This document shows, piece by piece, positions 10,635-42,281 of a DNA stretch of 56,068 nucleotides (positions are counted from its first letter, which is position 1; each line of letters begins with the position of its first letter). Location of the stretch: NCBI GenBank assembly GCA_903870365.1, contig CAIQCQ010000015.1:1-56068 (forward strand), given 5' to 3'. This stretch comes from an uncultured bacterium (GTDB taxonomy: Bacteria > Patescibacteriota > Minisyncoccia > Phycocordibacterales > DATDWN01). A program made the translations under genes and the position numbers. The notes below the pieces were generated by a model that was not told the DNA's origin, searched no databases, and saw only the letters and a list, made by a program, of their open reading frames with translations.

Positions 10635-10719
10635 TGGAATAGGTATCAGGAATAGGTGGAAATAGGTGTCAGAAATAGGTGTCAGGTACCGTTTTTTAAA
10701 ATAAAATTCTGAACAAAGC
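10635..10719. repeat. Cassette-boundary repeat copy B
   Basis: Same 44-bp core TAGGTGTCAGGTACCGTTTTTTAAAATAAAATTCTGAACAAAGC with different mini-repeat expansion. Confidence 0.9.
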
Positions 10720-10724
10720 CGGGA

Positions 10725-10872
10725 GACCTGGATTCGCCACGCGACTCAAAATTTTCCGTCAAAAATTTTGGTCTGTGCACCGCCTCGCGAACGGACACTG
10801 GTGTGTCCGGCTTCGCCGCTCCGGCGGTTCGAATCCAGGTCCACGTGTAAAAAATACCTTCGGTATATTTTT
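10725..10872. repeat. tRNA-Gln-associated element (direct + inverted copies of tRNA 3' end around a two-hairpin core)
   Basis: 10725-10736 = 10880-10891; 10826-10842 = reverse complement of 10879-10895. Confidence 0.85.
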
Positions 10873-10873
10873 G

Positions 10874-10944
10874 CTACGGGACCTGGATTCGAACCAAGAT
10901 AAATGCCTTCAGAGGGCATTGTCCTACCATTAGACGATCCCGTA
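10874..10944 (-). tRNA. tRNA-Gln(CUG)
   Basis: TACGGGA/TCCCGTA acceptor, ATGCC-CTCTGAA-GGCAT anticodon arm, GGTTCGAATCC; CCA not encoded. Confidence 0.95.
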
Positions 10945-10984
10945 ATGTCTCACCACAATACCTGAAAAATCAATATTTTTCAAC

Positions 10985-11037
10985 AAAAAAGCGCCGGGAA
11001 CTCATGCACCCTGGGGTGCATGAGTTCGGCAAGCGCT
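10985..11037 (-). terminator. Long GC-rich intrinsic terminator
   Basis: GAACTCATGCACCC/GGGTGCATGAGTTC stem plus U-run on the minus strand. Confidence 0.7.
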
Positions 11038-11197
11038 TCGAGTGCCCCATGAGAACACTCAATGATCATGATTTTTTTGCCATGAGCAAGGTTTCCATGC
11101 ATCGTGTTCCCGTATTCCATGATCAAAAAAAGGGAGGGATTTACAGAACCGTGGATACCAGAGAGTATTCTACTAGAAAGTACCTTTTATACAAGTT

Positions 11198-12922
11198 TTA
11201 CTTCGCCTTATTTTTCAAACAAGCCTGCACAAATGCAGTAAACAGCGGGTGCGGACTGAGTGGTCGGGCCTTTAATTCTGGGTGAAATTGCGAGCCGAGG
11301 AAAAATGGATGGACTGACTTTGGTAATTCAGCAATTTCCATCAATCGTCCGTCTGGCGAGGTGGCAGAAAAAACCATCCCTCCATGTTCAATCTCTGCAA
11401 TGTACTCTGGACTGACTTCATAGCGATGACGATGTCGTTCAGAAATCTTACCACCAACACTTTCTGTCCCATAGGCCTTTTCAGCAATGGTGCCCTTTTT
11501 CAAAAAAGCTGTGTAGGCACCGAGGCGCATACTGGCTCCGTACTTCCCTGCTTCAAGCAACTTCTTTTGTTCTGGCATGATGTCGATGACCAGGTGTTCT
11601 GCTTTTGGATTGATCTCTGCAGTGTTGGCATCTTTCCAACCAAGAACGTTGCGACAGTATTCAATGACCGCCAGCTGCATACCATAACACAAACCAAAAT
11701 ACGGTATTTTGTTTTCTCGCGCAAATTTAATAGCCATGATCACCCCTTCTATCCCCGACTCACCAAACCCACCAGGGACGATCACCCCATCAAAGTTTTT
11801 TAATTCAGATATTTTTTTCGGACTTGTCTCATACTCTTTCGAATTGATCCAAGTCAATTTTGTTTTTGCGCCACTGGCCCACGACGAAAATTTGACCGCC
11901 TCAATGACCGACAAATATGCATCAGACAAGACAAAGTCCCCTGTATCAAAATATTTACCAATCACGGCAATCTTTAATTCTTTCTTGGTATTCTTGCGTC
12001 GAGCGACCATAGCACGCCACTGTACCAAATCTTTTTGTCGAGCCTGAATACCAAAATGTTCCAGCACACGTTCACTCAAGCCATCATTCTCAAAGTTTAT
12101 TGGTACATCATAAATACTTTCAATATCTGGCGCAGAGATCACATTGTCCACCGGCACGCCAGTCGACAGAGCAATCTTTTCTTTACGTTTATGGTCGAGC
12201 GGTATATGACTACGAGCAATAATCATGTCTGCGTTGATACCATACGAGTTGAGCTGTCGCACTGCGTTTTGTGTTGGCTTGGTTTTCATTTCTCCCAATG
12301 TTCCGGGGACCGGTAAGTACGACACCACCACAAACATGACGTCCTTGGGATGCTTGAGTCTGAGCATACGAGCTGCTTCAAGGAAAATGGCGTTCTGATA
12401 TTCACCGACAGTGCCACCAATTTCAAAAATAGTTATTTCAGAATCTGTCTTTTCGATCGAGGCTTTGATGCGGCGCAAGATCTCTTCGGTGATGTGATAG
12501 ACCGGCTCAACGCATTTACCCTTGTAGCCAAGTGCTCGCTCTTTATCGATAACATATTTAAAGACCATACCGTTGGTCATATAGTTTTCTGGGAGGAGTG
12601 ATTTGTTGAGAAATCGTTCGTAGTTACCCATGTCCTGATCAGTCTCCAGTCCAGAATCTAAAACAAAAACCTCACCGTGCTCAGTGGGGTTCATGGTACC
12701 TGCATCGACATTTAAATATGGATCTGCTTTGATGAGGCTGACACGGAAACCTTTTGACTGGAGGATGGTACCAATGGATGCAGTAGTCACCCCTTTTCCC
12801 ACACCTGACATCACACCGCCGACGACAAAGATGTATTTATGAGTATGTGTATCTTTTGTACTGGTCGTGCGGGTTGTGGCAGTTTTTTCCTTGTCTGTTT
12901 TTTTGGTATTTTTTTGTGGCAT
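11198..12922 (-). CDS. pyrG: CTP synthase
   Basis: GGVMSGVGKG, DPYLNVDAGTMNP.EHGEVFV, KTKPTQ, GLCYGMQ, QFHPE. Confidence 0.98.
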   Translation of the reverse strand: MPQKNTKKTDKEKTATTRTTSTKDTHTHKYIFVVGGVMSGVGKGVTTASIGTILQSKGFRVSLIKADPYLNVDAGTMNPTEHGEVFVLDSGLETDQDMGNYERFLNKSLLPENYMTNGMVFKYVIDKERALGYKGKCVEPVYHITEEILRRIKASIEKTDSEITIFEIGGTVGEYQNAIFLEAARMLRLKHPKDVMFVVVSYLPVPGTLGEMKTKPTQNAVRQLNSYGINADMIIARSHIPLDHKRKEKIALSTGVPVDNVISAPDIESIYDVPINFENDGLSERVLEHFGIQARQKDLVQWRAMVARRKNTKKELKIAVIGKYFDTGDFVLSDAYLSVIEAVKFSSWASGAKTKLTWINSKEYETSPKKISELKNFDGVIVPGGFGESGIEGVIMAIKFARENKIPYFGLCYGMQLAVIEYCRNVLGWKDANTAEINPKAEHLVIDIMPEQKKLLEAGKYGASMRLGAYTAFLKKGTIAEKAYGTESVGGKISERHRHRYEVSPEYIAEIEHGGMVFSATSPDGRLMEIAELPKSVHPFFLGSQFHPELKARPLSPHPLFTAFVQACLKNKAK

Positions 12923-13118
12923 ATTACTTGTATTCGTTTGTATGTCTCATTGTAGTACAAACTACGAAAAATATACTAAAAAAGTGTTGAAAAACTAAAA
13001 AAATAGACTATTTCAACACAAATTTTAGATAAAATCAGGAAAAAATGAACAAAAAAATTAATATATACGCAAACAGCCAAATCCCAATGGATTTGGCTGG
13101 AACAAAAATCCTATTTCT

Positions 13119-13352
13119 CTAAGGGACAAAGAAGCCGGACTCGGGTTGATAAACCTTGATTAAAAACATTCCGCCAATATCGCCCCCCTTTACAACATGC
13201 TGTGCACAGAGATCCTGTTCTGTATCGTCTGAAAAACACACACAACCCTTTGGTAGAGAGTAGCGACCCACTGCCAATGCACAACCATGTCTACATGGAA
13301 CTTCTTTTTCTTCAACAGGAATAGCGACACCCTGCACTATCATACTCGTCAT
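13119..13352 (-). CDS. Small Cys/His-rich hypothetical protein (possible Zn-binding)
   Basis: CRHGC...CVC...CAQH; GGAGG upstream; terminator hairpin ~13074-13099 downstream. Confidence 0.7.
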   Translation of the reverse strand: MTSMIVQGVAIPVEEKEVPCRHGCALAVGRYSLPKGCVCFSDDTEQDLCAQHVVKGGDIGGMFLIKVYQPESGFFVP

Positions 13353-13410
13353 AAATAGCCTCCACCAAAATACTACGTCAAAACTCCTTAAAAGAAAAGG
13401 TTAGAGAGAA

Positions 13411-14337
13411 TCAGACTTTCAAATGCTTTCGTGCGGCAAGATATGAAGAAAAGGCACCAATGAACACCCCAGAGAATACAATGATACAAAAGATCTGACC
13501 AAAGTTTGATACATAGTAACTAAAAATATTGAGACCAATGAAAAAGTTTTGTGTCACACGACCCAGCCATAAAGTGATCGGCCAAAAGAGTACAAGTGTA
13601 ATGATGGCAGAAAAGAGTCCGTACATAGCACCAGAGATGACAAACGGTCCGCGGATATATGTCCGACTGGCACCAACCAGACGCATCACAGAAATTTCAT
13701 CTTTGGACATAAAGATGGACAAACGAATCGTGTTGTAGGTGATAAGAATAGAAATCGCCACAAGAAACATGGTCAAAGCAAAACCGAGACGATTTGCAGA
13801 ATCAATCAACCGATTAAGTGCATCAATAGCATCTTTGTTTTGATAATAGTTGACCTTGTCAACAATACTCGCGCCGTTAGCAGACAAGGCACTTGAACTT
13901 TGCAAGAACTGAGCAATACCTTCGTACTGTGAGGGATCTTTGGCTTTGACATTGAGTGATGCTTCGAGTGGATTTGTTCCAAGCTCATCAAGGGCCTGTA
14001 GGGTAAACTGATCATTCTGATGTTTTGTTTTAAAATCACTCAAAGCCTGGTCAGCTGATGTATAGGTGACTGATGAAACCTCTGGTAAAGCTTGGAGTGA
14101 TTTATCTACAGCCATAATGTCGTCCTCTGACGCTGATTGAACAAAGTAGACATTGACGTCAACTTTGTTTTTTATTTCCTGCAAACTAGATTTGAGGATG
14201 GCACCGAGAAAAATAGTACCAAGTATCACAGATAGAGTAATGATCATGACCAACATACCAGAAAAAGATACGAAACCATTACGCCAAAAACTATAAAAAC
14301 CCGAGCGTGCTATTCTTTTGACTTTGGTCCAAAACAT
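13411..14337 (-). CDS. ftsX: Cell division permease FtsX
   Basis: NTIRLSI...EISVMRLVGA...IRGPF; downstream of ftsE. Confidence 0.93.
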   Translation of the reverse strand: MFWTKVKRIARSGFYSFWRNGFVSFSGMLVMIITLSVILGTIFLGAILKSSLQEIKNKVDVNVYFVQSASEDDIMAVDKSLQALPEVSSVTYTSADQALSDFKTKHQNDQFTLQALDELGTNPLEASLNVKAKDPSQYEGIAQFLQSSSALSANGASIVDKVNYYQNKDAIDALNRLIDSANRLGFALTMFLVAISILITYNTIRLSIFMSKDEISVMRLVGASRTYIRGPFVISGAMYGLFSAIITLVLFWPITLWLGRVTQNFFIGLNIFSYYVSNFGQIFCIIVFSGVFIGAFSSYLAARKHLKV

Positions 14338-14424
14338 AATGGATTGAATAATGAAGTACGAATCACGATGTACGAATAATACAAAGATTTTTTCGTAATT
14401 CTTATTTCGTTATTCTTTATTCTA

Positions 14425-15105
14425 TCATACCATGTACTTCCCCTTCTTATCATCTCGAATAATCTTACCGTTTTCCATAGTGATCACTCGTTTACCCAGA
14501 GAGTCGATGACCGCTTTGTTGTGAGTGGTCAATATGACTGTGGTACCAAGATCATTGATCTTTTTTAAAATCTGGACGATATCATTGGTATTCATCGGGT
14601 CCAAATTTCCTGTTGGCTCATCGGCAATCACCACGTCTGGCTGATTAACGATCGCGCGAGCGATAGCTACCCGCTGCTGTTCACCACCAGATAGTTCGTG
14701 AGGGAAATTCCATATTTTTTTAGCCAAATCAACGAGTTCAAGCACATGTGGTACATCAGACTCTATCTCCTCGTCTGTCCGACCAGCGGCTTCCATGGCA
14801 AAGGCAATATTTTCATACACAGTCTTGTTTGGCAGAAGACGAAAATCTTGAAAGACAGTACCAACCTTGCGACGAAATTCATTTATCTCTTTCTTTTTTA
14901 ATTTTTGAATATTTGTATCATTAAAAAAAACCGCGCCATCTGTTGGTTTTTCTTCGGCTAAAAACATTTTAATCAATGTTGTTTTACCCGCACCAGAATG
15001 TCCGACAATGGAAACAAATTCATTTGGCTCGACACTAAAAGAAATGCCTTCTAGAGCAACTGAACTGTCGGAATATATTTTAGAGACATTATCAAAGAGG
15101 ATCAT
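14425..15105 (-). CDS. ftsE: Cell division ATPase FtsE
   Basis: GHSGAGKTT, VFQDFRLL, LSGGEQQRVAIARA, ADEPTGNLDP. Confidence 0.95.
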   Translation of the reverse strand: MILFDNVSKIYSDSSVALEGISFSVEPNEFVSIVGHSGAGKTTLIKMFLAEEKPTDGAVFFNDTNIQKLKKKEINEFRRKVGTVFQDFRLLPNKTVYENIAFAMEAAGRTDEEIESDVPHVLELVDLAKKIWNFPHELSGGEQQRVAIARAIVNQPDVVIADEPTGNLDPMNTNDIVQILKKINDLGTTVILTTHNKAVIDSLGKRVITMENGKIIRDDKKGKYMV

Positions 15106-15203
15106 CCCGTTAGAGTTTTATTGAATAAATATAACATTGTAAATATTGTACTACAGACCAGAATCTTCTATCCACAAAAAGAGTTTCGTAAAACTCTAAC
15201 GGG
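15106..15203. mobile_element. MITE-like element copy 2
   Basis: 15-bp perfect TIR CCCGTTAGAGTTTTA/TAAAACTCTAACGGG; ATCAT target duplication on both sides. Confidence 0.85.
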
Positions 15204-15249
15204 ATCATATACCACCATTATACCGCTTTTCTATTATTCGGGCAAAGAA

Positions 15250-16146
15250 TTACAGCCCTTTTTCTGCTTCTAAAAATTCATCAATTTCCCCTTCATTTAA
15301 AACTTTATCCACTTGAGCTGTTTCCACATTTGTTCGATGATCTTTGACCATTTTGTACGGGTGCAACACATACGAGCGAATCTGACTCCCCCACTCGATC
15401 TGTGTTGTTTTAGAAATATACATTCCTTTTTCTTTGGCCACGCGTTCTTTTTCCATGGCGGTAAAAATCTTTCCTTTCAAAATACTCAAAGCTTTTTCTT
15501 TGTTCTGAGCCTGACTGCGTTCATTGTCACTGGCTGCAGCCAGACCGGTGGGAAGATGAACTACACGTACGGCAGTCTCACGCTTGTTGACGTTTTGACC
15601 ACCAGGACCCGATGACCGAGACAACTCTACCTTGAGATCTTTTTCATCTAGTTCGATTTGATTTTCATGTGTCTTTTCAAATTTCGGAATAACCTCTACC
15701 ATAGAAAATGATGTTTGACGTTTGCTGTTGGCATTGAACGGCGAGACACGGACTAGTCGGTGCACACCTGATTCATTTTTAAGGGTTCCATACACGCCCT
15801 TGCCTTTTATTTCAATAGTCACATTTCTGTAGCCACCATGATCGTTTTCATTTTGATGAATAAAAGTGACTCCAAACCCTCGTCGTTCAAAAAACTTTGT
15901 ATACATATGTAACAACATGGCCGAAAAATCTTCGGCATCGTCTCCTCCCGCACCGGAAAAAATAGTCATGACCGCGTCCCCTTTGTCATACACTCCACCA
16001 CCTTCTATTTCTGTTTTTAATTCTTGTATCCGCTTGATAGCGGCCTGAGCTTTTTCTTTGTCCGCCCAAAAATCAGCAGAGACCATGTCGGCTTCTAGTC
16101 GAGCTAGTTCCGCTTCTAATATTGTTTTCTTTTCATCTGCAGACAT
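15250..16146 (-). CDS. prfB: Peptide chain release factor 2 (short form, no programmed frameshift)
   Basis: SPF motif (RLVRVSPF) and GGQ; start at MSADEKK. Confidence 0.92.
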   Translation of the reverse strand: MSADEKKTILEAELARLEADMVSADFWADKEKAQAAIKRIQELKTEIEGGGVYDKGDAVMTIFSGAGGDDAEDFSAMLLHMYTKFFERRGFGVTFIHQNENDHGGYRNVTIEIKGKGVYGTLKNESGVHRLVRVSPFNANSKRQTSFSMVEVIPKFEKTHENQIELDEKDLKVELSRSSGPGGQNVNKRETAVRVVHLPTGLAAASDNERSQAQNKEKALSILKGKIFTAMEKERVAKEKGMYISKTTQIEWGSQIRSYVLHPYKMVKDHRTNVETAQVDKVLNEGEIDEFLEAEKGL

Positions 16147-16180
16147 GCGTCGAGTATAACAAAAATAGCCATGTTGGTAC

Positions 16181-16302
16181 AAAAAAACCGCCAGGCACCC
16201 CCGGAGAAAGGGTGCTGGCGGTTTACCCATACTGGGTCAAGTCTGAATGCACAGCTCGGAGGAGTGCCGTGTATTCAGGTCTCTTAATTACAAGACTAGT
16301 AT
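16181..16302 (-). ncRNA. Candidate orphan structured small RNA with own promoter and terminator
   Basis: TTGGCA-16-TACACT upstream, CTGAATACACGGC/GCTGTGCATTCAG stem, terminator CCGCCAGCACCC/GGGTGCCTGGCGG + U7. Confidence 0.45.
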
Positions 16303-16422
16303 AAGTGTATACCCTACCTACTACGTGCCAAACAAAAAAGTGAACTACCTCGAAAATTTTATATATACATATTATTTGAATTTATAATCAGAAAATATTT
16401 TTATTTCTTTTTTTAATCGATG

Positions 16423-16495
16423 AGCCATCTCCCGGACTTGAACCGGGCACCTACCCCTTACGAAGGGGTTGCTCTACCAGATGAGCTAAGATGGC
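16423..16495 (-). tRNA. tRNA-Thr(CGU)
   Basis: GCCATCT/AGATGGC, ACCCC-TTCGTAA-GGGGT, GGTTCAAGTCC. Confidence 0.95.
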
Positions 16496-16511
16496 ATTAT
16501 TTATTTTGATT

Positions 16512-16592
16512 GAGAATCGGACCCTTACGAAGCCGTAACACAGCTTCTCACTACTTTACAAAAGCAGTGTTCTGCCACTGAACTATTTTGGC
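16512..16592 (-). pseudogene. Rearranged tRNA-Thr(UGU)-like pseudogene
   Basis: Intact 5' half GCCAAAATAGTTCAGTGGCAGAACACTGCT-TTTGTAA-AGTAG, extra hairpin, T-loop GGGTCCGATTCTC, but no 3' acceptor strand. Confidence 0.65.
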
Positions 16593-16733
16593 GAGCGAGG
16601 AGCGAATAAAGGATACTTCGTTCATATCGTCCGAGTGAGGCCAAAATATGAGAGGTACTCCTGCTCTTATTTTGGCGGGTATATAAAAACACTAGCTTGC
16701 CTAGTGTATCAAAAAATAAGTATTACGAAAATC

Positions 16734-17054
16734 TTACACAAATCGCTGCTTCATACGACTCATGGTAAACACCGTCACATTACGCACAAACAAACCACAC
16801 GCCAAAAGTGCAGATACCACCAATAATTTGACTGTCGTATGCGTTTTTAAAAATGCATCAATAAAAAAAGCATACGAGCCTCTGGTCAACATAATATTTG
16901 AAATAACATGTGGTACAGAGACTAACAGTGACAACAAAAAAGAAAATACCCCGAGAGCAAAAATCTCCCCGACAAAAGGGCTTCGTAATCTCCGAATGAT
17001 GTACAGCAGATAGACGCCAAACATCGTTCTTCCCTTCAATGTGAGTTGTGTCAT
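16734..17054 (-). CDS. Small 2-TM protein, putative anti-sigma partner
   Basis: ATGA overlap with the ECF sigma gene; hydrophobic. Confidence 0.65.
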   Translation of the reverse strand: MTQLTLKGRTMFGVYLLYIIRRLRSPFVGEIFALGVFSFLLSLLVSVPHVISNIMLTRGSYAFFIDAFLKTHTTVKLLVVSALLACGLFVRNVTVFTMSRMKQRFV

Positions 17055-17617
17055 ATATGTTTTAGAAGAGATTCCCGTGCCAAAACAATTCTGAATGATT
17101 GTTTGGCCCTGTGAATACGCGAACGAACAGCAGAGACAGTCATGTGTTCCTGCTCGGCAATTTCTTTTTGACTTTTTTCTTCAAAGAAATACAGCCGCAA
17201 GAAACGAGACAAACCATGTGGCATCCTGGACATAACCACATGTACATACGAATGATCAACTGGAACCACAGACTCTACCACACCCATACTATCCAAATCA
17301 GCAAAATCAAAACCCTGGACAATCCTTGCTTTATTTCTTCGAGCTACTTCATCATAACAAGTGTTAATCAAAATCTTGTATGCCCATGAACGAAAACTAG
17401 CCTGTGGACGTTCAGAAAATTGTTCAGCATGCTTATATATTTTCAAAAAAGTATCCTGTACAACATCCTCAGCTAATTCCTGTGACTTGAGAATACTCAA
17501 GCTCTTTCGCAAAAAAGCTTTTTGATATCGTCCAACGATAACACTAAACAACCACGGCTTGACTGTCGACTGTTTGAGAACAAGAGCATCAGTAAGTGTG
17601 TGATTGTTATGTTTCAT
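17051..17617 (-). CDS. ECF RNA polymerase sigma factor
   Basis: AEDVVQDTFLK, SFRSWAYKILINTC, S.KEIA...AVRSRIHRAK. Confidence 0.92.
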   Translation of the reverse strand: MKHNNHTLTDALVLKQSTVKPWLFSVIVGRYQKAFLRKSLSILKSQELAEDVVQDTFLKIYKHAEQFSERPQASFRSWAYKILINTCYDEVARRNKARIVQGFDFADLDSMGVVESVVPVDHSYVHVVMSRMPHGLSRFLRLYFFEEKSQKEIAEQEHMTVSAVRSRIHRAKQSFRIVLARESLLKHI

Positions 17618-17767
17618 GGTAACAAGCAAATATGATGGTAAGGGCATAGAGCGCAGGGTTTAATGCGCTCCGGCCATTGGTATAACCATTGGTTTATAAT
17701 ACGACCCTTTCATATAGTATAACGTCCATAATATACAAAATGTTGCATACAAGTTTACTACCACATA

Positions 17768-18346
17768 TTAAAACTGATATATGTACACCTTTTGTCCAAG
17801 TGTGTGCGGTGGACGATCAAGCTGAATGACTTCCACAGGTTGTTTATTGCTAAATTTAAAATCCACTGAGTAGAGCTTCGCTCCTGGTTGCAACTGTTTT
17901 TCAAATTGGGGTAATAAAGCATCCATTAATTTTGGAAACAACTAGGTAATGACAATGGTCGCATCAGTCACATCTGTGGTAAATACATCTCCACGAATAA
18001 TACGGATAGACTGTGGTGAAATATGCCGAACCTTCCATTGAGCCAAAAGATACGGGACGAATCCCCGATCAACACCTACGTACTTTCCTGTTCTATACAC
18101 ACGATACAACTCATACAAAATCCGCCCATCACCACAACCAAGATCATACACAACAGATTGAGTGTCTAAGTGAATATGTTTGACCAACCCACTGACCGCA
18201 TCAGACGGTAGTGGGACAAATGGTGCTGAGGGTTTACCAATACCAGTTATCTCGAAGAAAAAAGTGGCCAAAAGAAAAAAGAGTACACAAAAAAGTACGA
18301 GACAAATAAAAATGAGAATAATACTATAGAAAAAAATAGGAAACAT
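17768..18346 (-). pseudogene. Class I SAM methyltransferase interrupted by in-frame TAG (17942-17944)
   Basis: APFVP, VYDLGCGDGRIL; after TAG the frame continues LFPKLMDALLPQFEKQLQPGAKLYSVDF...YIYQF*. Confidence 0.8.
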
Positions 18347-18348
18347 TG

Positions 18349-18420
18349 AGCCGCTGCTGGGAATCGGACCCAGGACCTTTTCCTTACCAAGGAAATATTC
18401 TACCACTGAACTACAACGGC
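18349..18420 (-). tRNA. tRNA-Thr(GGU)
   Basis: GCCGTTG/CAGCGGC, TTTCC-TTGGTAA-GGAAA, T-loop TCCGATT. Confidence 0.93.
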
Positions 18421-18491
18421 AAAACCCTCAAAAACCACACAAAGACAACTATGGCATCATAGTACAAAAACGCTATATTTCCAAACGGATA

Positions 18492-18962
18492 TTACTTCTT
18501 CTGCAACACTTTCAAATCAGCCAACACTTCCTCTGCATGAGTTTCTGGTTTTACTTTCTCATATATTTTTGCAATTTTTCCTGCTGGATCAATCAAAAAA
18601 CTCGTTCGCAATGTCCCCATATACTTTCTACCATACATACTTTTTTCAGCCCATACACCATAGCGAGTAACTATCTTTTTGTCTTCATCAGAAAGCAATG
18701 TAAACGGCAAACCGTACTTGTCCGCAAATTTTCTATGACTAGCTACTGAATCAATAGATACACCAAACACCCCTAATTTTAATTTTTTAAAATGTGGCAA
18801 TTCATCCCTAATAGCGCATGCCTCTGCAGTACAACCACTGGTGTCGTCTTTAGGATAAAAATAGAGTAAGACCCACTTACCAAGACATTCAGCAAGTGTA
18901 TGTTTCTTGCCATCTTGATCGAGTAAACTAAACGCAGGTGCTTTGGTACCAAGTTTAATCAT
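18492..18962 (-). CDS. bcp: Thioredoxin-dependent peroxiredoxin Bcp
   Basis: LYFYPKDDTSGCTAEAC. Confidence 0.95.
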   Translation of the reverse strand: MIKLGTKAPAFSLLDQDGKKHTLAECLGKWVLLYFYPKDDTSGCTAEACAIRDELPHFKKLKLGVFGVSIDSVASHRKFADKYGLPFTLLSDEDKKIVTRYGVWAEKSMYGRKYMGTLRTSFLIDPAGKIAKIYEKVKPETHAEEVLADLKVLQKK

Positions 18963-18965
18963 ATA

Positions 18966-19550
18966 TTAGTGAGCTAGAAATTTATACATCCGCATACCAA
19001 TGATCGATCCCACAATCGGTCCGAATACATAGGCAAGATTGAGTGAACCAATGCCAAAAGCTACTGCCGGGTTTAATACACCATTTGATCCAAGTAATGC
19101 AGCGATAGTAATACCAAGAAGCAAGGAGCCTCCCACAACCAATCCTGAGGCATCCTGTGGGGTTTTGCCATACACAGCAGAGGCAATACCAAAGGTAAAG
19201 AAAAAGGTACCAAGAAATTCTGCACCAAACACTGCCAGTGAATTCACCACTGTTAATGGAGCAATACCGACAGTAGAACTGACCACAGACATGGCAACAA
19301 ACGCACCGATACATTGAGCAATAATATACATCAGTGCCTCTGCCGGTTTAACTTTACCAATAGACCACAAACCCATTGTCACCGCCGGGTTAATATGGGA
19401 CCCTGAAACATGACCAATGGAGTAGACAAACAGCATCAACACAAGAGCCGCTAATACAGGAGTGGCAACAACAAAACCAATTTTCAATGATAATGCTACT
19501 ACCAATGTCAGTGCTCCTGTTCCCAATACTTCAGCAATATATTTTTTCAT
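18966..19550 (-). CDS. Aquaporin (MIP family)
   Basis: Two NPA motifs (SGSHINPAVT, LNPAVA). Confidence 0.93.
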   Translation of the reverse strand: MKKYIAEVLGTGALTLVVALSLKIGFVVATPVLAALVLMLFVYSIGHVSGSHINPAVTMGLWSIGKVKPAEALMYIIAQCIGAFVAMSVVSSTVGIAPLTVVNSLAVFGAEFLGTFFFTFGIASAVYGKTPQDASGLVVGGSLLLGITIAALLGSNGVLNPAVAFGIGSLNLAYVFGPIVGSIIGMRMYKFLAH

Positions 19551-19746
19551 ATAATACATCTAAATAGTAATACGCACAGTATAGCATCTCTGATATGTGT
19601 AAAAACAGTATCTTCACTATGTCTGATATTGTCATATACTGCAATAAAACCCTCTTCAAAGGGTTCTGTTATAGAACTTGATGTAATAATCATGAGTCTG
19701 AAACGACTGTATGATATTGTCAGATTTTAATATCAAACAAAAAAAT

Positions 19747-19953
19747 ATGCATACAGGATGGCTTTGGATTTTTTTATGGATTATTCTCTGGGTGTTTATT
19801 TGGCCTGTCTTTCTGGTTCTTATACAACGAGTACGTAGAAAAAATGGTAGAGATGGAGTAAGTAATAAATCAGCTCTTGATATACTTAAAGAGCGTTACG
19901 CTAAAGGTGAAATTGATAAGGTGAAGTTTGATGAAATGAAAAAGGATATGTAA
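19747..19953 (+). CDS. SHOCT-domain small membrane protein
   Basis: TM followed by ALDILKERYAKGEIDKVKFDEMKK. Confidence 0.88.
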   Translation: MHTGWLWIFLWIILWVFIWPVFLVLIQRVRRKNGRDGVSNKSALDILKERYAKGEIDKVKFDEMKKDM

Positions 19954-20022
19954 TAAAAAAACTATAGAAACATCGTTTTTTTATACGTACGAGCAAAAGT
20001 CCCCTTCCGGGGATTTTGTTTG

Positions 20023-20333
20023 CGCGAGCGACCGGAGTTGAACCGGCGACCTCTTCCGTGCACTGATCCACTATTTTCATAATGGCGTGGACTATATCTT
20101 CACCATGAGTTTTACCTTGTAGGTGCTTTGGTATCTAGTCTCTACGGCGTCCCCTTCTCTTATTTTATTTTTATTAAAATAAGAACAATGAAGAGTTCCC
20201 ACGGTATTCGCATATCTATAGTAAAATAGACTTAGCCTTCACCGTTATCCCAAAGAGTTTCAATGTATTATTTCAATACAAAGCTGCATGTTTGTCTACA
20301 GGGAAGCGCTCTAACCAGCTGAGCTACGCCCGC
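20023..20333 (-). tRNA. tRNA-Asp(GUC), exons 20298-20333 and 20023-20060, split by a group I intron
   Basis: Spliced: GCGGGCGTAGCTCAGCTGGTTAGAGCGCTTCCCTGT^CACGGAAGAGGTCGCCGGTTCAACTCCGGTCGCTCGCG. Confidence 0.92.
20061..20297 (-). ncRNA. Group I self-splicing intron (237 nt, no ORF) between anticodon positions 35/36
   Basis: Exon ends in U, intron ends in G; GCAG guide pairs with CUGU; R element GTAGAGACTAG and S element AAGATATAGTCC. Confidence 0.9.
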
Positions 20334-20395
20334 AAATTGTCACCAACAAAAGAAATATAACAGATTTTAGAGATTCTGGCAAAAATCTCCAATTT

Positions 20396-20530
20396 TTGTG
20401 TCGATGAGTGGAAACGCCCGCACCTCTCAGCTCGCCGTCGCTCGCTTCGGGTTGGGCACCGACTCGCGTTTTCGTGTGGTCACGAAAAACCGCTCCGTCG
20501 TCCGATTCCACAAAAAAGCTCCGCTTTTTA
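20396..20530. repeat. tRNA(CAU)-associated element
   Basis: 20396-20413 = 20531-20548; 20500-20511 = reverse complement of 20543-20554; two-hairpin core between. Confidence 0.85.
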
Positions 20531-20533
20531 TTG

Positions 20534-20604
20534 TGTCGATGAGTGGAATCGGACCACTGTCTAAGGCTTATGAGTCCTTCGTTCTACCATTGAACTACAC
20601 CGAC
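20534..20604 (-). tRNA. tRNA with CAU anticodon (elongator Met or Ile2)
   Basis: GTCGGTG/CATCGAC acceptor, CTCATAA loop, T-loop TCCGATT. Confidence 0.88.
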
Positions 20605-20668
20605 AATAATACAGAATATACCAGAGAAATGGCTCGAACACAAAAATCCCTTTTGGGATTTTTATGTA

Positions 20669-20868
20669 ACTTGTTGCGGGGCCACGAATGGGCGACGAAT
20701 ATTTTACTTGCCGTCGCAAATAAAATTTCGCTACCCCGTCTCGGTTATTTTTTCTGCTGAAAAAATATACATGCGACTTGCAATTCGTGACACAGACAAA
20801 ACAGTTTGTCTGTTGTCTCCGCAACAACTATAAAACCAAAAACACCCTTGCGAGTGCTCTGGTTTTAT
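20669..20868. repeat. tRNA-fMet-associated element
   Basis: 20669-20689 = 20869-20889; inverted pieces TGCAATTCGTG (20779-20789) and CCGCAACAA (20819-20827). Confidence 0.85.
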
Positions 20869-20873
20869 ACTTG

Positions 20874-20944
20874 TTGCGGGGCCACGAATTGCACGTGGGG
20901 CTTCAGGTTATGAGCCTGACGAGATACTACTTCTCCACCCCGCT
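20874..20944 (-). tRNA. Initiator tRNA-fMet(CAU)
   Basis: AGCGGGG/CCCCGCA with 1:72 mismatch, TCAGG-CTCATAA-CCTGA, T-loop TGCAATT. Confidence 0.88.
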
Positions 20945-41832: not shown

Positions 41833-42235
41833 GGGGATGACAGGTATAGACATATACGTCCTTTGACAATGCGCACGGCAGAGCTTGAGTGACTCTTTAA
41901 TCCGCTCAAAAGCATACGTGCTAAAAACACCCTTGCAAAAGCAGTTCGTTCTCCGTTCGTCGGAGTCAACGGATTTGCTCTCGCTTTCGCGTAATCTTTT
42001 TTAAGACTACACCATTGCGGCGGCTCTCCCCCGAAGTCTGTTACGGGAAAGAGTTGATATACTTCCGGACTTTGGCAATCTCCGTCGTTTCAGGATATTG
42101 TCGAGACAATGAAGCTGGATTCGTATCTATTTCGTAGATTTTATAGGATACGGATCGAGAAAAACAAAATCCACTACGCCATGTAGAAGCATTGTTAAAA
42201 CGTGTGTGCACGGGGCTTCAATGCTCCCATCTCCA
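41833..42235 (+). ncRNA. ssrA: tmRNA; tag reading frame 41935-41994 = AKAVRSPFVGVNGFALAFA*
   Basis: GGGGATG pairs with CATCTCC-A (G3:U70), T-arm GGGGC-TTCAAT-GCTCC, GCA resume codon, Ala-rich tag end; directly after smpB. Confidence 0.92.
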
Positions 42236-42281
42236 CATCTGATTATCAAAATGTTGTAAATCCTTAACTTTAAATATCAAC

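Follow-up and report, generated by a model that had tools for sequence, protein, structure and literature searches.

What stands behind three tRNA genes of contig CAIQCQ010000015.1, where units of about 130-200 nt, lying directly 3' of a tRNA gene and on its strand, carry copies in both senses of that gene's own 3' end? The contig, 56,068 nt long and called the window from here on, is one of the 38 contigs of the 801-kb genome of an uncultured bacterium (41% G+C, 37 tRNA genes). An initial annotation, made from the letters alone, had noticed behind tRNA-Gln and two tRNA-Met genes a common order of tRNA, short hairpin, antisense copy of the tRNA 3' end, core and sense copy, and had proposed a non-autonomous element that recognises the T-arm irrespective of tRNA identity and rebuilds its arms from the target. 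The layout is found at all three loci. The elements are one homologous family with a strand-specific, covarying fold, and the matches collected from other genomes indicate that this family is spread over the whole Candidate Phyla Radiation (CPR).

All five tRNA genes called in the window by ARAGORN lie on the minus strand, and three of them have an element behind them, toward lower plus-strand coordinates. The parts of the three elements are listed below in the direction of transcription of the tRNA; core scores are those of the covariance model R2, which was built only from copies outside the window.

10873-10944, minus strand: tRNA-Gln(CUG), host of element 1 (ARAGORN; Rfam tRNA model, 60.3 bits)
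10849-10872, minus strand: element 1, A-run, hairpin and T-run, terminator-like, directly 3' of tRNA-Gln (from the sequence)
10826-10846, minus strand: element 1, antisense arm, complement of the T-loop, the T-stem 3' strand and part of the acceptor 3' strand
10735-10822, minus strand: element 1, structured core (R2, 43.1 bits, E 7.3e-8)
10791-10811 and 10745-10771, minus strand: element 1, core helices, P1 hairpin and GACGG-loop hairpin (predicted fold)
10721-10738, minus strand: element 1, sense arm, beginning inside the T-loop, 12 nt exact (10725-10736), acceptor part decayed
20533-20604, minus strand: tRNA-Met(CAU), host of element 2 (ARAGORN; Rfam tRNA model, 65.3 bits)
20512-20529, minus strand: element 2, single weak hairpin 3' of the tRNA (short form, without anti-acceptor arm; from the sequence)
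20497-20511, minus strand: element 2, anti-T arm, 15 nt (inverted repeat)
20414-20504, minus strand: element 2, structured core (R2, 58.9 bits, E 1.9e-11)
20467-20491 and 20426-20448, minus strand: element 2, core helices, P1 and GACGG-loop hairpin
20393-20416, minus strand: element 2, sense arm including trailer bases (direct repeat)
20873-20944, minus strand: tRNA-Met(CAU), the fMet of the initial annotation, host of element 3 (ARAGORN; Rfam tRNA model, 50.4 bits)
20830-20868, minus strand: element 3, terminator-like hairpin (inverted repeat)
20817-20828, minus strand: element 3, anti-acceptor arm (inverted repeat)
20790-20816, minus strand: element 3, inner hairpin (hp0) between the anti-acceptor and anti-T arms
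20779-20789, minus strand: element 3, anti-T arm, complement of the T-loop and the T-stem 3' strand (inverted repeat)
20689-20782, minus strand: element 3, structured core (R2, 42.3 bits, E 1.1e-7)
20746-20767 and 20698-20728, minus strand: element 3, core helices, P1 and GACGG-loop hairpin
20669-20689, minus strand: element 3, sense arm, 21 nt exact including 4 nt of trailer (direct repeat)
20638-20667, minus strand: element 3, second terminator-like palindrome, behind the sense arm (inverted repeat)

At tRNA-Gln, the copies amount to a 12-nt exact direct repeat (10725-10736 and 10880-10891) and a 28-nt inverted repeat of 82% identity (10826-10853 and 10868-10895), 17 nt of the antisense arm (10826-10842) being an exact complement. 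Element 2 has a 24-nt direct repeat (92%; 20393-20416 and 20528-20551) and a 15-nt inverted one (93%; 20497-20511 and 20543-20557), while element 3 has an exact direct repeat of 21 nt (20669-20689 and 20869-20889) together with inverted repeats of 25 nt (88%) and 14 nt (93%), its terminator-like hairpin, acceptor 3' strand and anti-acceptor arm forming a palindrome with 25-nt arms. The CCGTC loops and CCGnCTCG linkers described for all three cores are present as read on the plus strand; on the tRNA strand they are GACGG and CGAGnCGG. The cores, put at about 85 nt in the initial annotation, exist with the extents given above in place of those first assigned. Two of the sense copies run 2-4 nt into the genomic trailer and do not carry CCA, as had been noticed. 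R2, run on both strands of the window with E up to 1, gave no match beyond the three cores, and neither the repeat search nor the covariance model found an element at the window's two tRNA-Thr genes or at an intron-bearing tRNA-Asp.

The association of such copies with tRNA genes is not a product of chance similarity. Exact copies of the last 34 nt plus 6 trailer nt of all 37 tRNAs of the genome were sought in 400 nt on either side. Sense or antisense copies of at least 10 nt, and of up to 24 nt, lie downstream of 14 of the 37, and the longest copy in the upstream control is 9 nt. Comparison of these downstream regions separated most cores into two types. Type A stands behind tRNA-Lys, Arg, Val, Trp, Ala, Leu(UAA) and Leu(CAA); type B includes the Gln element and the first Met element (element 2) of the window. 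A model built from the seven type-A copies (R1) matches 14 places in this genome, including the divergent type; as it matches type-B copies also, at lower scores, the two types are homologous. In total the genome holds 16 model matches, with 12 tRNAs having matches behind them and two further matches split off by inserted DNA.

The core is a three-way junction of about 90 nt, in which a long variable P1 hairpin is followed by an unpaired GGUG. Next comes a short P2 stem (CCC/GGG), inside which stands an A/U-rich hairpin whose loop is GACG(G/A). UCGAGGGAGA, which makes up the 3' end, is one of two conserved unpaired motifs, the other being GGUGCCCAGA. Among the seven type-A cores (80% mean column identity) RNAalifold predicts 32 pairs, 19 of them with compensatory changes, and in 94 distinct copies (103 matches from 28 genomes) double changes are found in all 32. 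This bears out the claim of a single family with a shared layout and compensatory stem changes. Standard pairs occupy 95.2% of the cells in the 94-copy alignment, compared with 64.3% in shuffles, none of the 500 shuffles reaches any of five measures, and sliding the partners by 1-3 columns lowers the pairing to 33-47%. The 94-copy alignment was fitted to the model and thereby favours the structure; the seven-sequence MAFFT alignment, which is independent of the model, gives the same helices. The core folds on the tRNA-sense strand: G-U and U-G cells number 123 and A-C and C-A cells 43, one G-U pair is invariant among the seven seed copies, and the folding energy is lower on that strand in 17 of 18 elements. 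Shuffled pairings served as the control for the idea that the core contains a third guide, and P1 and P2 showed no complementarity to the body of their own tRNA beyond that control.

The arms were measured in 105 tRNA-proximal elements from relatives and other CPR records. The antisense arm is complementary to the T-loop in full (7/7) in 85 elements, to at least 4/5 of the T-stem 3' strand in 101 and to at least 6/7 of the acceptor 3' strand in 69. The sense arm shares the T-stem 3' strand (at least 4/5 in 94) and the acceptor 3' strand (at least 6/7 in 65), and it never contains the T-loop completely (mean 2.75/7), the direct repeat beginning in the 3' half of the T-loop in every element measured; the break within the T-loop first seen in the window is thus a trait of the family. 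Both arm alignments adjoin the core in each of the 20 best loci. The sense copy spans from the inside of the T-loop to the discriminator, sometimes continuing into trailer and terminator: it extends to the last acceptor base in 69 of 105 elements, and identity past the acceptor, with one mismatch allowed, reaches 10-19 nt in four and at least 20 nt in another four.

Two forms of the unit can be told apart. In the long form, to which 89 of 105 elements belong and whose core is over 40 nt away from the tRNA, a terminator-like hairpin is followed by an anti-acceptor arm, hp0 and an anti-T arm, and in the short form (16 of 105) there is only a single weak A/U hairpin and the anti-T arm. The anti-acceptor arm complements the acceptor 3' strand perfectly and does not copy the tRNA 5' strand; opposite U70 of tRNA-Ala, for instance, the anti-acceptor has A and the tRNA itself G. 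Many long forms have a perfect palindrome with arms of 22-27 nt that runs from the acceptor 3' strand over trailer, terminator and anti-trailer to the anti-acceptor. The inner hairpin hp0 always lies no more than one base from the acceptor/T-stem junction of the copied strand, the point at which the body of a real tRNA departs from the acceptor/T helix. Arms of either sense may hold genomic trailer, and CCA occurs only where the gene encodes it. This implies that the copies are made from DNA or from the primary transcript, in agreement with the initial annotation, which had placed the duplication at DNA or precursor level on the grounds of the trailer bases.

The arms follow the local tRNA and not the core. 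The cores behind tRNA-Leu(CAA) in two genomes (G019 and G001) are 98% identical, and their arms differ as their tRNAs do. An exception is a tRNA-Tyr element of G023, whose anti-T and sense arms match the T-stem found in a relative's tRNA-Tyr and not the one in its own. In the source genome (G000), ARAGORN calls at C24:18382-18469 a tRNA-Ser whose anticodon, ACU, is unusual and which nearly duplicates tRNA-Ser(UGA), and the antisense arm of its element fits the T-stem of tRNA-Ser(UGA) and not that of its own tRNA. Upstream of this gene lies an orphan long variant (L002; G000 C24:18480-18725, minus strand) with a multi-hairpin domain of about 110 nt in place of P1, whose arms fit a tRNA-Ser ending in ...CGATTCCGC that is encoded on other contigs.

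How far the family extends was determined with the covariance models on metagenome-assembled, incomplete genomes, for which model E-values are rough and relatives are non-independent samples. R1 (E at most 1e-3) matches 28 of 41 genomes of the same order, with 1-15 matches per genome: 23 of 24 in the source organism's own family, the miss being a 95% complete genome, and 4 of 16 in other families. A same-strand tRNA lies upstream of 21 of the 27 best loci at 26-79 nt and of two more, which are tandem copies, at 207 and 421 nt; the other four have no tRNA call, one of these standing behind an intron-containing tRNA missed by ARAGORN and one starting a contig. For the 94 distinct copies, a same-strand upstream tRNA is present in the fetched locus in 77, and in 63 of these within 100 nt, which confirms the proposed adjacency to tRNA 3' ends. 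The host tRNAs have 34 anticodons and represent every amino acid but Cys. Linkage irrespective of tRNA identity, with arms matching locally, is therefore established; the recognition of the T-arm and the rebuilding of arms, which had been proposed along with it, found no such support, as discussed below.

Beyond the order, the exact pattern of the two conserved motifs occurs in at least 120 stretches of the genome collection. Among the matches listed, records are titled Candidatus Saccharibacteria, Paceibacterota, Nomurabacteria, Kaiserbacteria, Yonathbacteria, Zambryskibacteria and Parcubacteria, and some are non-CPR, e.g. Streptomyces. The covariance model recovered the family in these records: with R2, 62 of the 80 listed loci gave 71 matches in all, and the 18 loci without a match include the Streptomyces records. 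Of these 71 matches in other CPR records, 47 have a same-strand tRNA no more than 100 nt upstream and 4 others have one within 600 nt, and several of the remaining 20 lie behind intron-containing tRNAs or at a contig start. In an even sample of the phylum, R2 matched 2 of 151 genomes, including the source genome, under strict filters and with 28 candidates per genome; as the pattern scan shows a wider spread, this figure is not used as an estimate of prevalence. One of the CPR loci (L191, 2572-2877) contains two head-to-head copies around a shared palindromic terminator, with no tRNA called in the locus.

Arrays, empty orthologous sites and swapped cores indicate that the elements turn over. 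Behind tRNA-Ala of the source genome stand three units (A, B, A), and the farther a unit lies from the tRNA, the more its sense arm is decayed. Tandem units occur in G013 (two identical ones of 190 nt) and G023 (two of 182 nt), each unit with its own trailer and terminator, and behind the last sense arm comes a terminator unlike these, which is presumably the original. Empty alleles, which the initial annotation had suggested looking for, were found at two tRNAs. In one genus, a plain terminator is all that follows tRNA-Asp in G014 and G021, and G023 has two units there. At the second, tRNA-fMet, G006 and G002 are bare. The fMet locus also shows partial states, with only a terminator palindrome and anti-acceptor in G010, and with anti-acceptor, hp0 and anti-T arm but no core in G013; in six other genomes it has full elements of differing core types. 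Two genomes of one genus have near-identical hp0 and arms there and different core types, which in our reading suggests an exchange of cores. This points to cores exchanged between resident frameworks and not to arms rebuilt each time, contrary to what had been proposed. A comparison at tRNA-Glu within one genus was confounded by rearrangements of the synteny.

The two tRNA-Asp units of G023 (L074) are near-identical save for P1, which differs at 15 or more of about 43 positions. Here P1 is replaced wholesale with its fold kept, and one lower stem has a recombinant look, two stem variants joining there at a mismatch.

Copies can also be displaced from their tRNA while keeping its arms. One lies 1.46 kb from tRNA-Ser(UGA), behind an insert with an ORF (open reading frame) of 242 amino acids (aa) without Pfam match, and another 7.3 kb from tRNA-Leu(UAG), behind an island headed by a large serine recombinase; a few orphan copies have no tRNA nearby. 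The tRNA-Ser(UGA) insert measures 1.4 kb (L001 2100-3500; G000 C38:68866-70260), ends on the right in a third, decayed copy of the tRNA 3' end and includes an ORF of 91 aa with the motif DHGNSGG, which by eye has the look of a serine-protease fragment and has no Pfam match. At tRNA-Leu(UAG), the stop codon of the serine recombinase lies inside the tRNA 3' end, and its 7.2-kb island includes an amino-acid permease gene. Several copies are situated at contig ends or beside N-filled gaps, and such repeats may break assemblies at tRNA genes.

A mobility enzyme was sought among the neighbours of the elements and in the genomes that bear them. The search for copies carrying their own ORF found none. 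Profiles of five families were run on the 41 genomes, and none of the five tracks the element: large serine recombinases (22/41), reverse transcriptase (RT; PF00078, 18/41), TnpB-like proteins (PF07282, 1/41 and none in the own family), IS110 DEDD recombinases (PF01548, 2/41) and Y1 HUH proteins (PF01797, 24/41). Elements without a large serine recombinase match occur in 13 genomes and the converse in seven, 13 element-bearing genomes have no RT match, and PF01797 has no match in the source genome or in 9 other element-bearing genomes. Neither an ORF-bearing copy nor a co-distributed enzyme was thus obtained in favour of arm rebuilding. The ORFs around the 62 loci contain no recurrent neighbour gene and no parent element; the most widespread cluster is found at 6 loci, and the leading ones (PilM, RuvX with a tRNA-binding domain, ABC ATPase, aminotransferase) consist of housekeeping genes whose synteny is conserved. 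Many relatives (24/41 genomes) have ORFs of 210-280 aa, unlinked to the elements, that match only the C-terminal two thirds of the Y1 profile.

In the source genome, all five large serine recombinase genes adjoin tRNA genes (among them G000 C34:58847-60484, C14:21153-24254, C25:9242-10654 and C5:2419-3306), so that tRNA 3' ends are integration hot spots there; these islands are a matter separate from the elements. A contrasting case is tRNA-Pro(UGG) (G000 C6:1936-2125), which has a plain 32-nt direct copy of its 3' end 84 nt downstream, with the whole T-arm included and with neither antisense arm nor core, and which looks like an ordinary attachment-site scar.

The elements were not recovered as a catalogued family either. 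Rfam 15 has no family over the cores at gathering score, and with E up to 1 the window elements and a type-A copy gave none, only tRNAs and chance-level matches. Rfam gave no family on two orphan loci, its ribozyme families did not match the elements, and neither ARAGORN nor the Rfam tRNA and tmRNA (transfer-messenger RNA) models call the element. Phage records searched by blastn in distant mode gave no match to it, and viral contigs gave none to the serine recombinase or to the core pattern. A full-text literature search, judged by titles and the openings of abstracts, returned no description of such an element.

The explanation that we prefer, and hold only tentatively, is a non-autonomous RNA module behind tRNA genes that spreads by recombination within the duplicated tRNA 3' segment. 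It is supported by the placement of the elements behind tRNAs and in tRNA orientation, by unit-wise duplication and by gain or loss at orthologous sites, and as it requires no dedicated enzyme it agrees with the enzyme profiles. The unit would be transcribed by read-through from the tRNA promoter, which is likely in the short forms because no real terminator lies between tRNA and module, and uncertain in the long forms. In the transcript, the arms would either form a helix that closes the module and has its 3' strand in common with the neighbouring tRNA, or the antisense arm would invade the tRNA 3' half, the latter being the more stable fold by computation. The closing helix would resemble the acceptor/T minihelix of a tRNA, with hp0 where the tRNA body would branch, and the conserved unpaired motifs would bind some factor. 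At the level of DNA, units would be gained, multiplied and lost by recombination inside the duplicated segment from T-stem to discriminator: the newest unit would adjoin the tRNA and supply its working 3' end, and the old 3' end would be pushed downstream, where it decays. Exchange between the direct repeats would keep the sense arm in register, templated correction within the terminator-centred palindrome would keep the anti-acceptor arm matched, and gene conversion between loci would shuffle the cores.

Several points weigh against this explanation. No mobility enzyme that tracks the element was found among the five families profiled in 41 genomes. A search for sequencing runs that contain the locus gave none of RNA, and the good terminator that separates tRNA and module in the long forms speaks against read-through. 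Discriminator and trailer bases are often paired in the closing helix, which is not so in a true tRNA minihelix. At positions at which sense arm and tRNA disagree, the antisense arm fits the tRNA in 35 cases and the sense arm in 5, in an alignment that is biased toward the tRNA; the relevant pairing may accordingly be that with the upstream tRNA 3' half and not that with the sense arm. Unpaired motifs of 10 nt kept across distant CPR lineages, together with a synteny that 6 of the 62 loci share at a tRNA-Ser, are as compatible with a host function as with a selfish one. The explanation does not account for how a unit first obtains arms for a new tRNA, and the making of arms may be independent of this particular core, since another core type, behind tRNA-Gly, follows the same arm logic. 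This other type (G000 C38, L011 60-245, behind tRNA-Gly(UCC)) consists of two G/C-rich hairpins without a model match, has at its sides copies of the tRNA 3' end, one antisense (19 nt) and one sense (17 nt), and is followed by a weak model match.

Some of these points also fit a different view, in which the element is a non-mobile, cis-acting host RNA of the tRNA transcription unit that controls the maturation or decay of its tRNA. In read-through transcripts the antisense arm would pair with the T-loop and with the 3' strands of T-stem and acceptor of the tRNA just made, the sense arm would compete for it, and the core would bind a protein or ligand that sets the balance of the pairings. When folded with the tRNA 3' half, the antisense arm does prefer the tRNA, by computation with 17-28 bp in all three window elements, and the proposal of the initial annotation that it folds back on the pre-tRNA is energetically plausible in such models. 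The same preference is expressed in the 35 positions against 5. Conservation of the unpaired motifs over CPR lineages would be explained, as would the near-universal presence in the own family, the lack of a co-distributing enzyme among the five families and the short forms that have no real terminator ahead of the arm. On the other hand, carriers are only 2-15 tRNAs per genome and differ between genomes, empty and filled orthologous sites exist inside one genus, and there are identical tandem units as well as decayed distal copies. Selection on RNA pairing would not explain repeats that span trailer and terminator, nor does a role in cis fit orphan copies distant from any tRNA. We regard a host RNA of this kind as rather unlikely.

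In a further reading, the antisense segments act as guides. The elements could be a guide RNA family for an unidentified effector, with programmable guides against the tRNA gene or the tRNA 3' half that direct insertion or cleavage at the T-loop, as in bridge RNAs, omega RNAs or the exon-binding sites (EBS) of group II introns. Two guide-like segments, split by a conserved hairpin no more than one base from the acceptor/T-stem junction, would suit this idea, as would the constant start of the direct repeat in the T-loop 3' half, which is expected of a fixed cut or crossover point, and the re-insertion of units at the same tRNA that gives tandem arrays. The enzymes expected as partners are rare (TnpB-like, IS110 DEDD) or do not track the element (RT, large serine recombinase), and in a profile search of the 41 genomes Y1 HUH is absent from the source genome and 16 others. 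Moreover, the 62 loci share no neighbour gene, and the target segment is the same for either arm, in contrast to a bridge RNA, whose left and right guides address two different target halves. This makes a guide family with a hidden effector distinctly improbable. In a wider version, an RNA-guided system would target all tRNAs without any of the known effector families, its guides being re-templated from each new target; such a system is decidedly unlikely, and the same holds for the function it would have, namely to find the T-loop-to-acceptor segment of any tRNA gene or tRNA and to insert or act there. A second, similarly bold reading would have the closed module processed like a tRNA by RNase P, RNase Z and the CCA-adding enzyme into tRNA-ended RNAs, one per acceptor stem.

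The elements could also be functionless by-products of replication, in which template switching at two palindromes common to all tRNA genes, the terminator hairpin and the T-arm, leaves a direct-inverted-direct triplication of the tRNA 3' end with filler captured at the junction. The boundaries of the arms match the two hairpins, long perfect palindromes surround the terminator, the G010 locus has a core-less terminator palindrome with an anti-acceptor arm, and the second core type shares the arm logic, all of which speaks for such switching. The supposed filler is, however, a covarying structure in dozens of genomes that is conserved far above neutral filler, and hp0 interrupts the inverted copy at a fixed place, which leaves this origin very improbable. 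That the elements are ordinary attL/attR scars of integrase-borne islands in tRNA genes, as might be thought from the five recombinase genes beside tRNAs, the 7.2-kb recombinase island between tRNA-Leu(UAG) and its element copy and the plain core-less repeat at tRNA-Pro, is close to refuted, since the recombinase is not co-distributed (13 genomes with the element only, seven with the recombinase only) and a scar would keep no covarying fold, inverted copy or identical tandem units; the initial annotation had likewise set the elements apart from such scars, and the conserved fold and inverted copy bear this out.

Likeness to known systems is partial in each case. Integrative elements of tRNA genes and their integrase-less derivatives, cis-mobilisable elements between attL and attR, have in common with our units the flanking direct repeat of a tRNA 3' segment (12-24 nt in the window, and in relatives up to all of the trailer and terminator), the break in the T-loop, the replacement 3' end that keeps the tRNA intact and tandem accretion. 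The units differ in their size of 130-200 nt, the extra inverted copy, the covarying core and the 34 different tRNAs served; there is no ORF and no integrase inside them, and the large serine recombinases found in 22/41 genomes do not track them (tyrosine recombinases were not profiled).

MITEs, the miniature transposable elements with inverted repeats, as well as repetitive extragenic palindromes (REP) and the mosaic elements built from them (BIME) are similarly small, non-coding, multi-copy and intergenic, with inverted-repeat ends and a hairpin-rich interior. Here, however, the inverted ends repeat the neighbouring tRNA and change from locus to locus, no parent insertion sequence (IS) is found among the neighbours of the 62 loci, and the source genome has 16 model matches without a match to Y1, the enzyme family of the REP-associated transposases (RAYT). 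By these marks the elements are neither MITEs nor REP/BIME with RAYT; a match to a described REP/MITE family was among the outcomes that the initial annotation had named as refuting its proposal.

Integron attC sites and the attP hairpin of the CTX phage are alike in their strand-specific fold, few conserved bases and variable stems, and the sense and antisense copies of the element could fold into a duplex that imitates the target site. The stems of attC are no copies of the target, and the element occurs without integron integrase or cassette context.

IS110 bridge RNA, IS605 omega RNA and group II EBS share with it target-complementary segments within a conserved scaffold beside the target. 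The element lacks a DEDD, TnpB or RT partner by the PF01548, PF07282 and PF00078 profiles, which also sets it apart from retrons, and its arms, 12-28 nt long, present one target segment in both senses.

tmRNA, bacterial Y RNA and mascRNA-type handles also have an acceptor/T-like end helix, a branch at 7/49 and a location in tRNA units. In the element, the T-loop is replaced by the core, discriminator and trailer are often in the helix, CCA is present only when encoded by the gene, and the sequence of the helix is copied from the neighbour. We rate the element as lying outside the known kinds; among repeats, integrative elements and RNA motifs we know of no counterpart with inverted and direct flanks copied from the adjacent tRNA.

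Three further candidates were tried and rejected. Reverse transcription stopping at m1A58 does not fit arms that carry trailer in place of CCA and an antisense arm that passes position 58; H/ACA-like or C/D-like guides would need unpaired target bases and boxes, and neither are present; and in a tRNA duplicate with an insertion the T-loop would not be present as its complement, nor would the anti-acceptor be the complement of the 3' strand.

A single study supplied the three DNA runs whose contigs were compared with the window, and in the main strain these show the element loci unchanged. A contig of low depth (2.5) connects 20605 with 20869 through 5 different letters; its source is probably another organism, and it is not used as evidence. 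Just past the Gln element, at 10638-10694, there are three copies of a 21-nt direct repeat (AATAGGTRTCAG...). The tRNA-Asp(GUC) gene (20022-20335, minus strand) has a group I intron in its anticodon loop, with a match to Rfam Intron_gpI at 20068-20307 of 47.1 bits, slightly below the gathering score of 50. The same intron is found in tRNA-Asp of G021, and intron-bearing tRNAs, which ARAGORN misses without its intron option, occur also in G013, G027 and several CPR loci. A tmRNA gene (41833-42238, plus strand, Rfam 84.1 bits) has no element behind it.

The family described here is widespread, strongly constrained and outside every catalogued family searched, and it occurs in the CPR, a large bacterial branch whose RNA biology is almost unexplored. 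If the elements are mobile, they target and re-target a whole gene class without the five mobility enzyme families that were profiled. If they are instead an RNA of the host, they would point to a new level at which organisms with minimal genomes mature or control their tRNAs.

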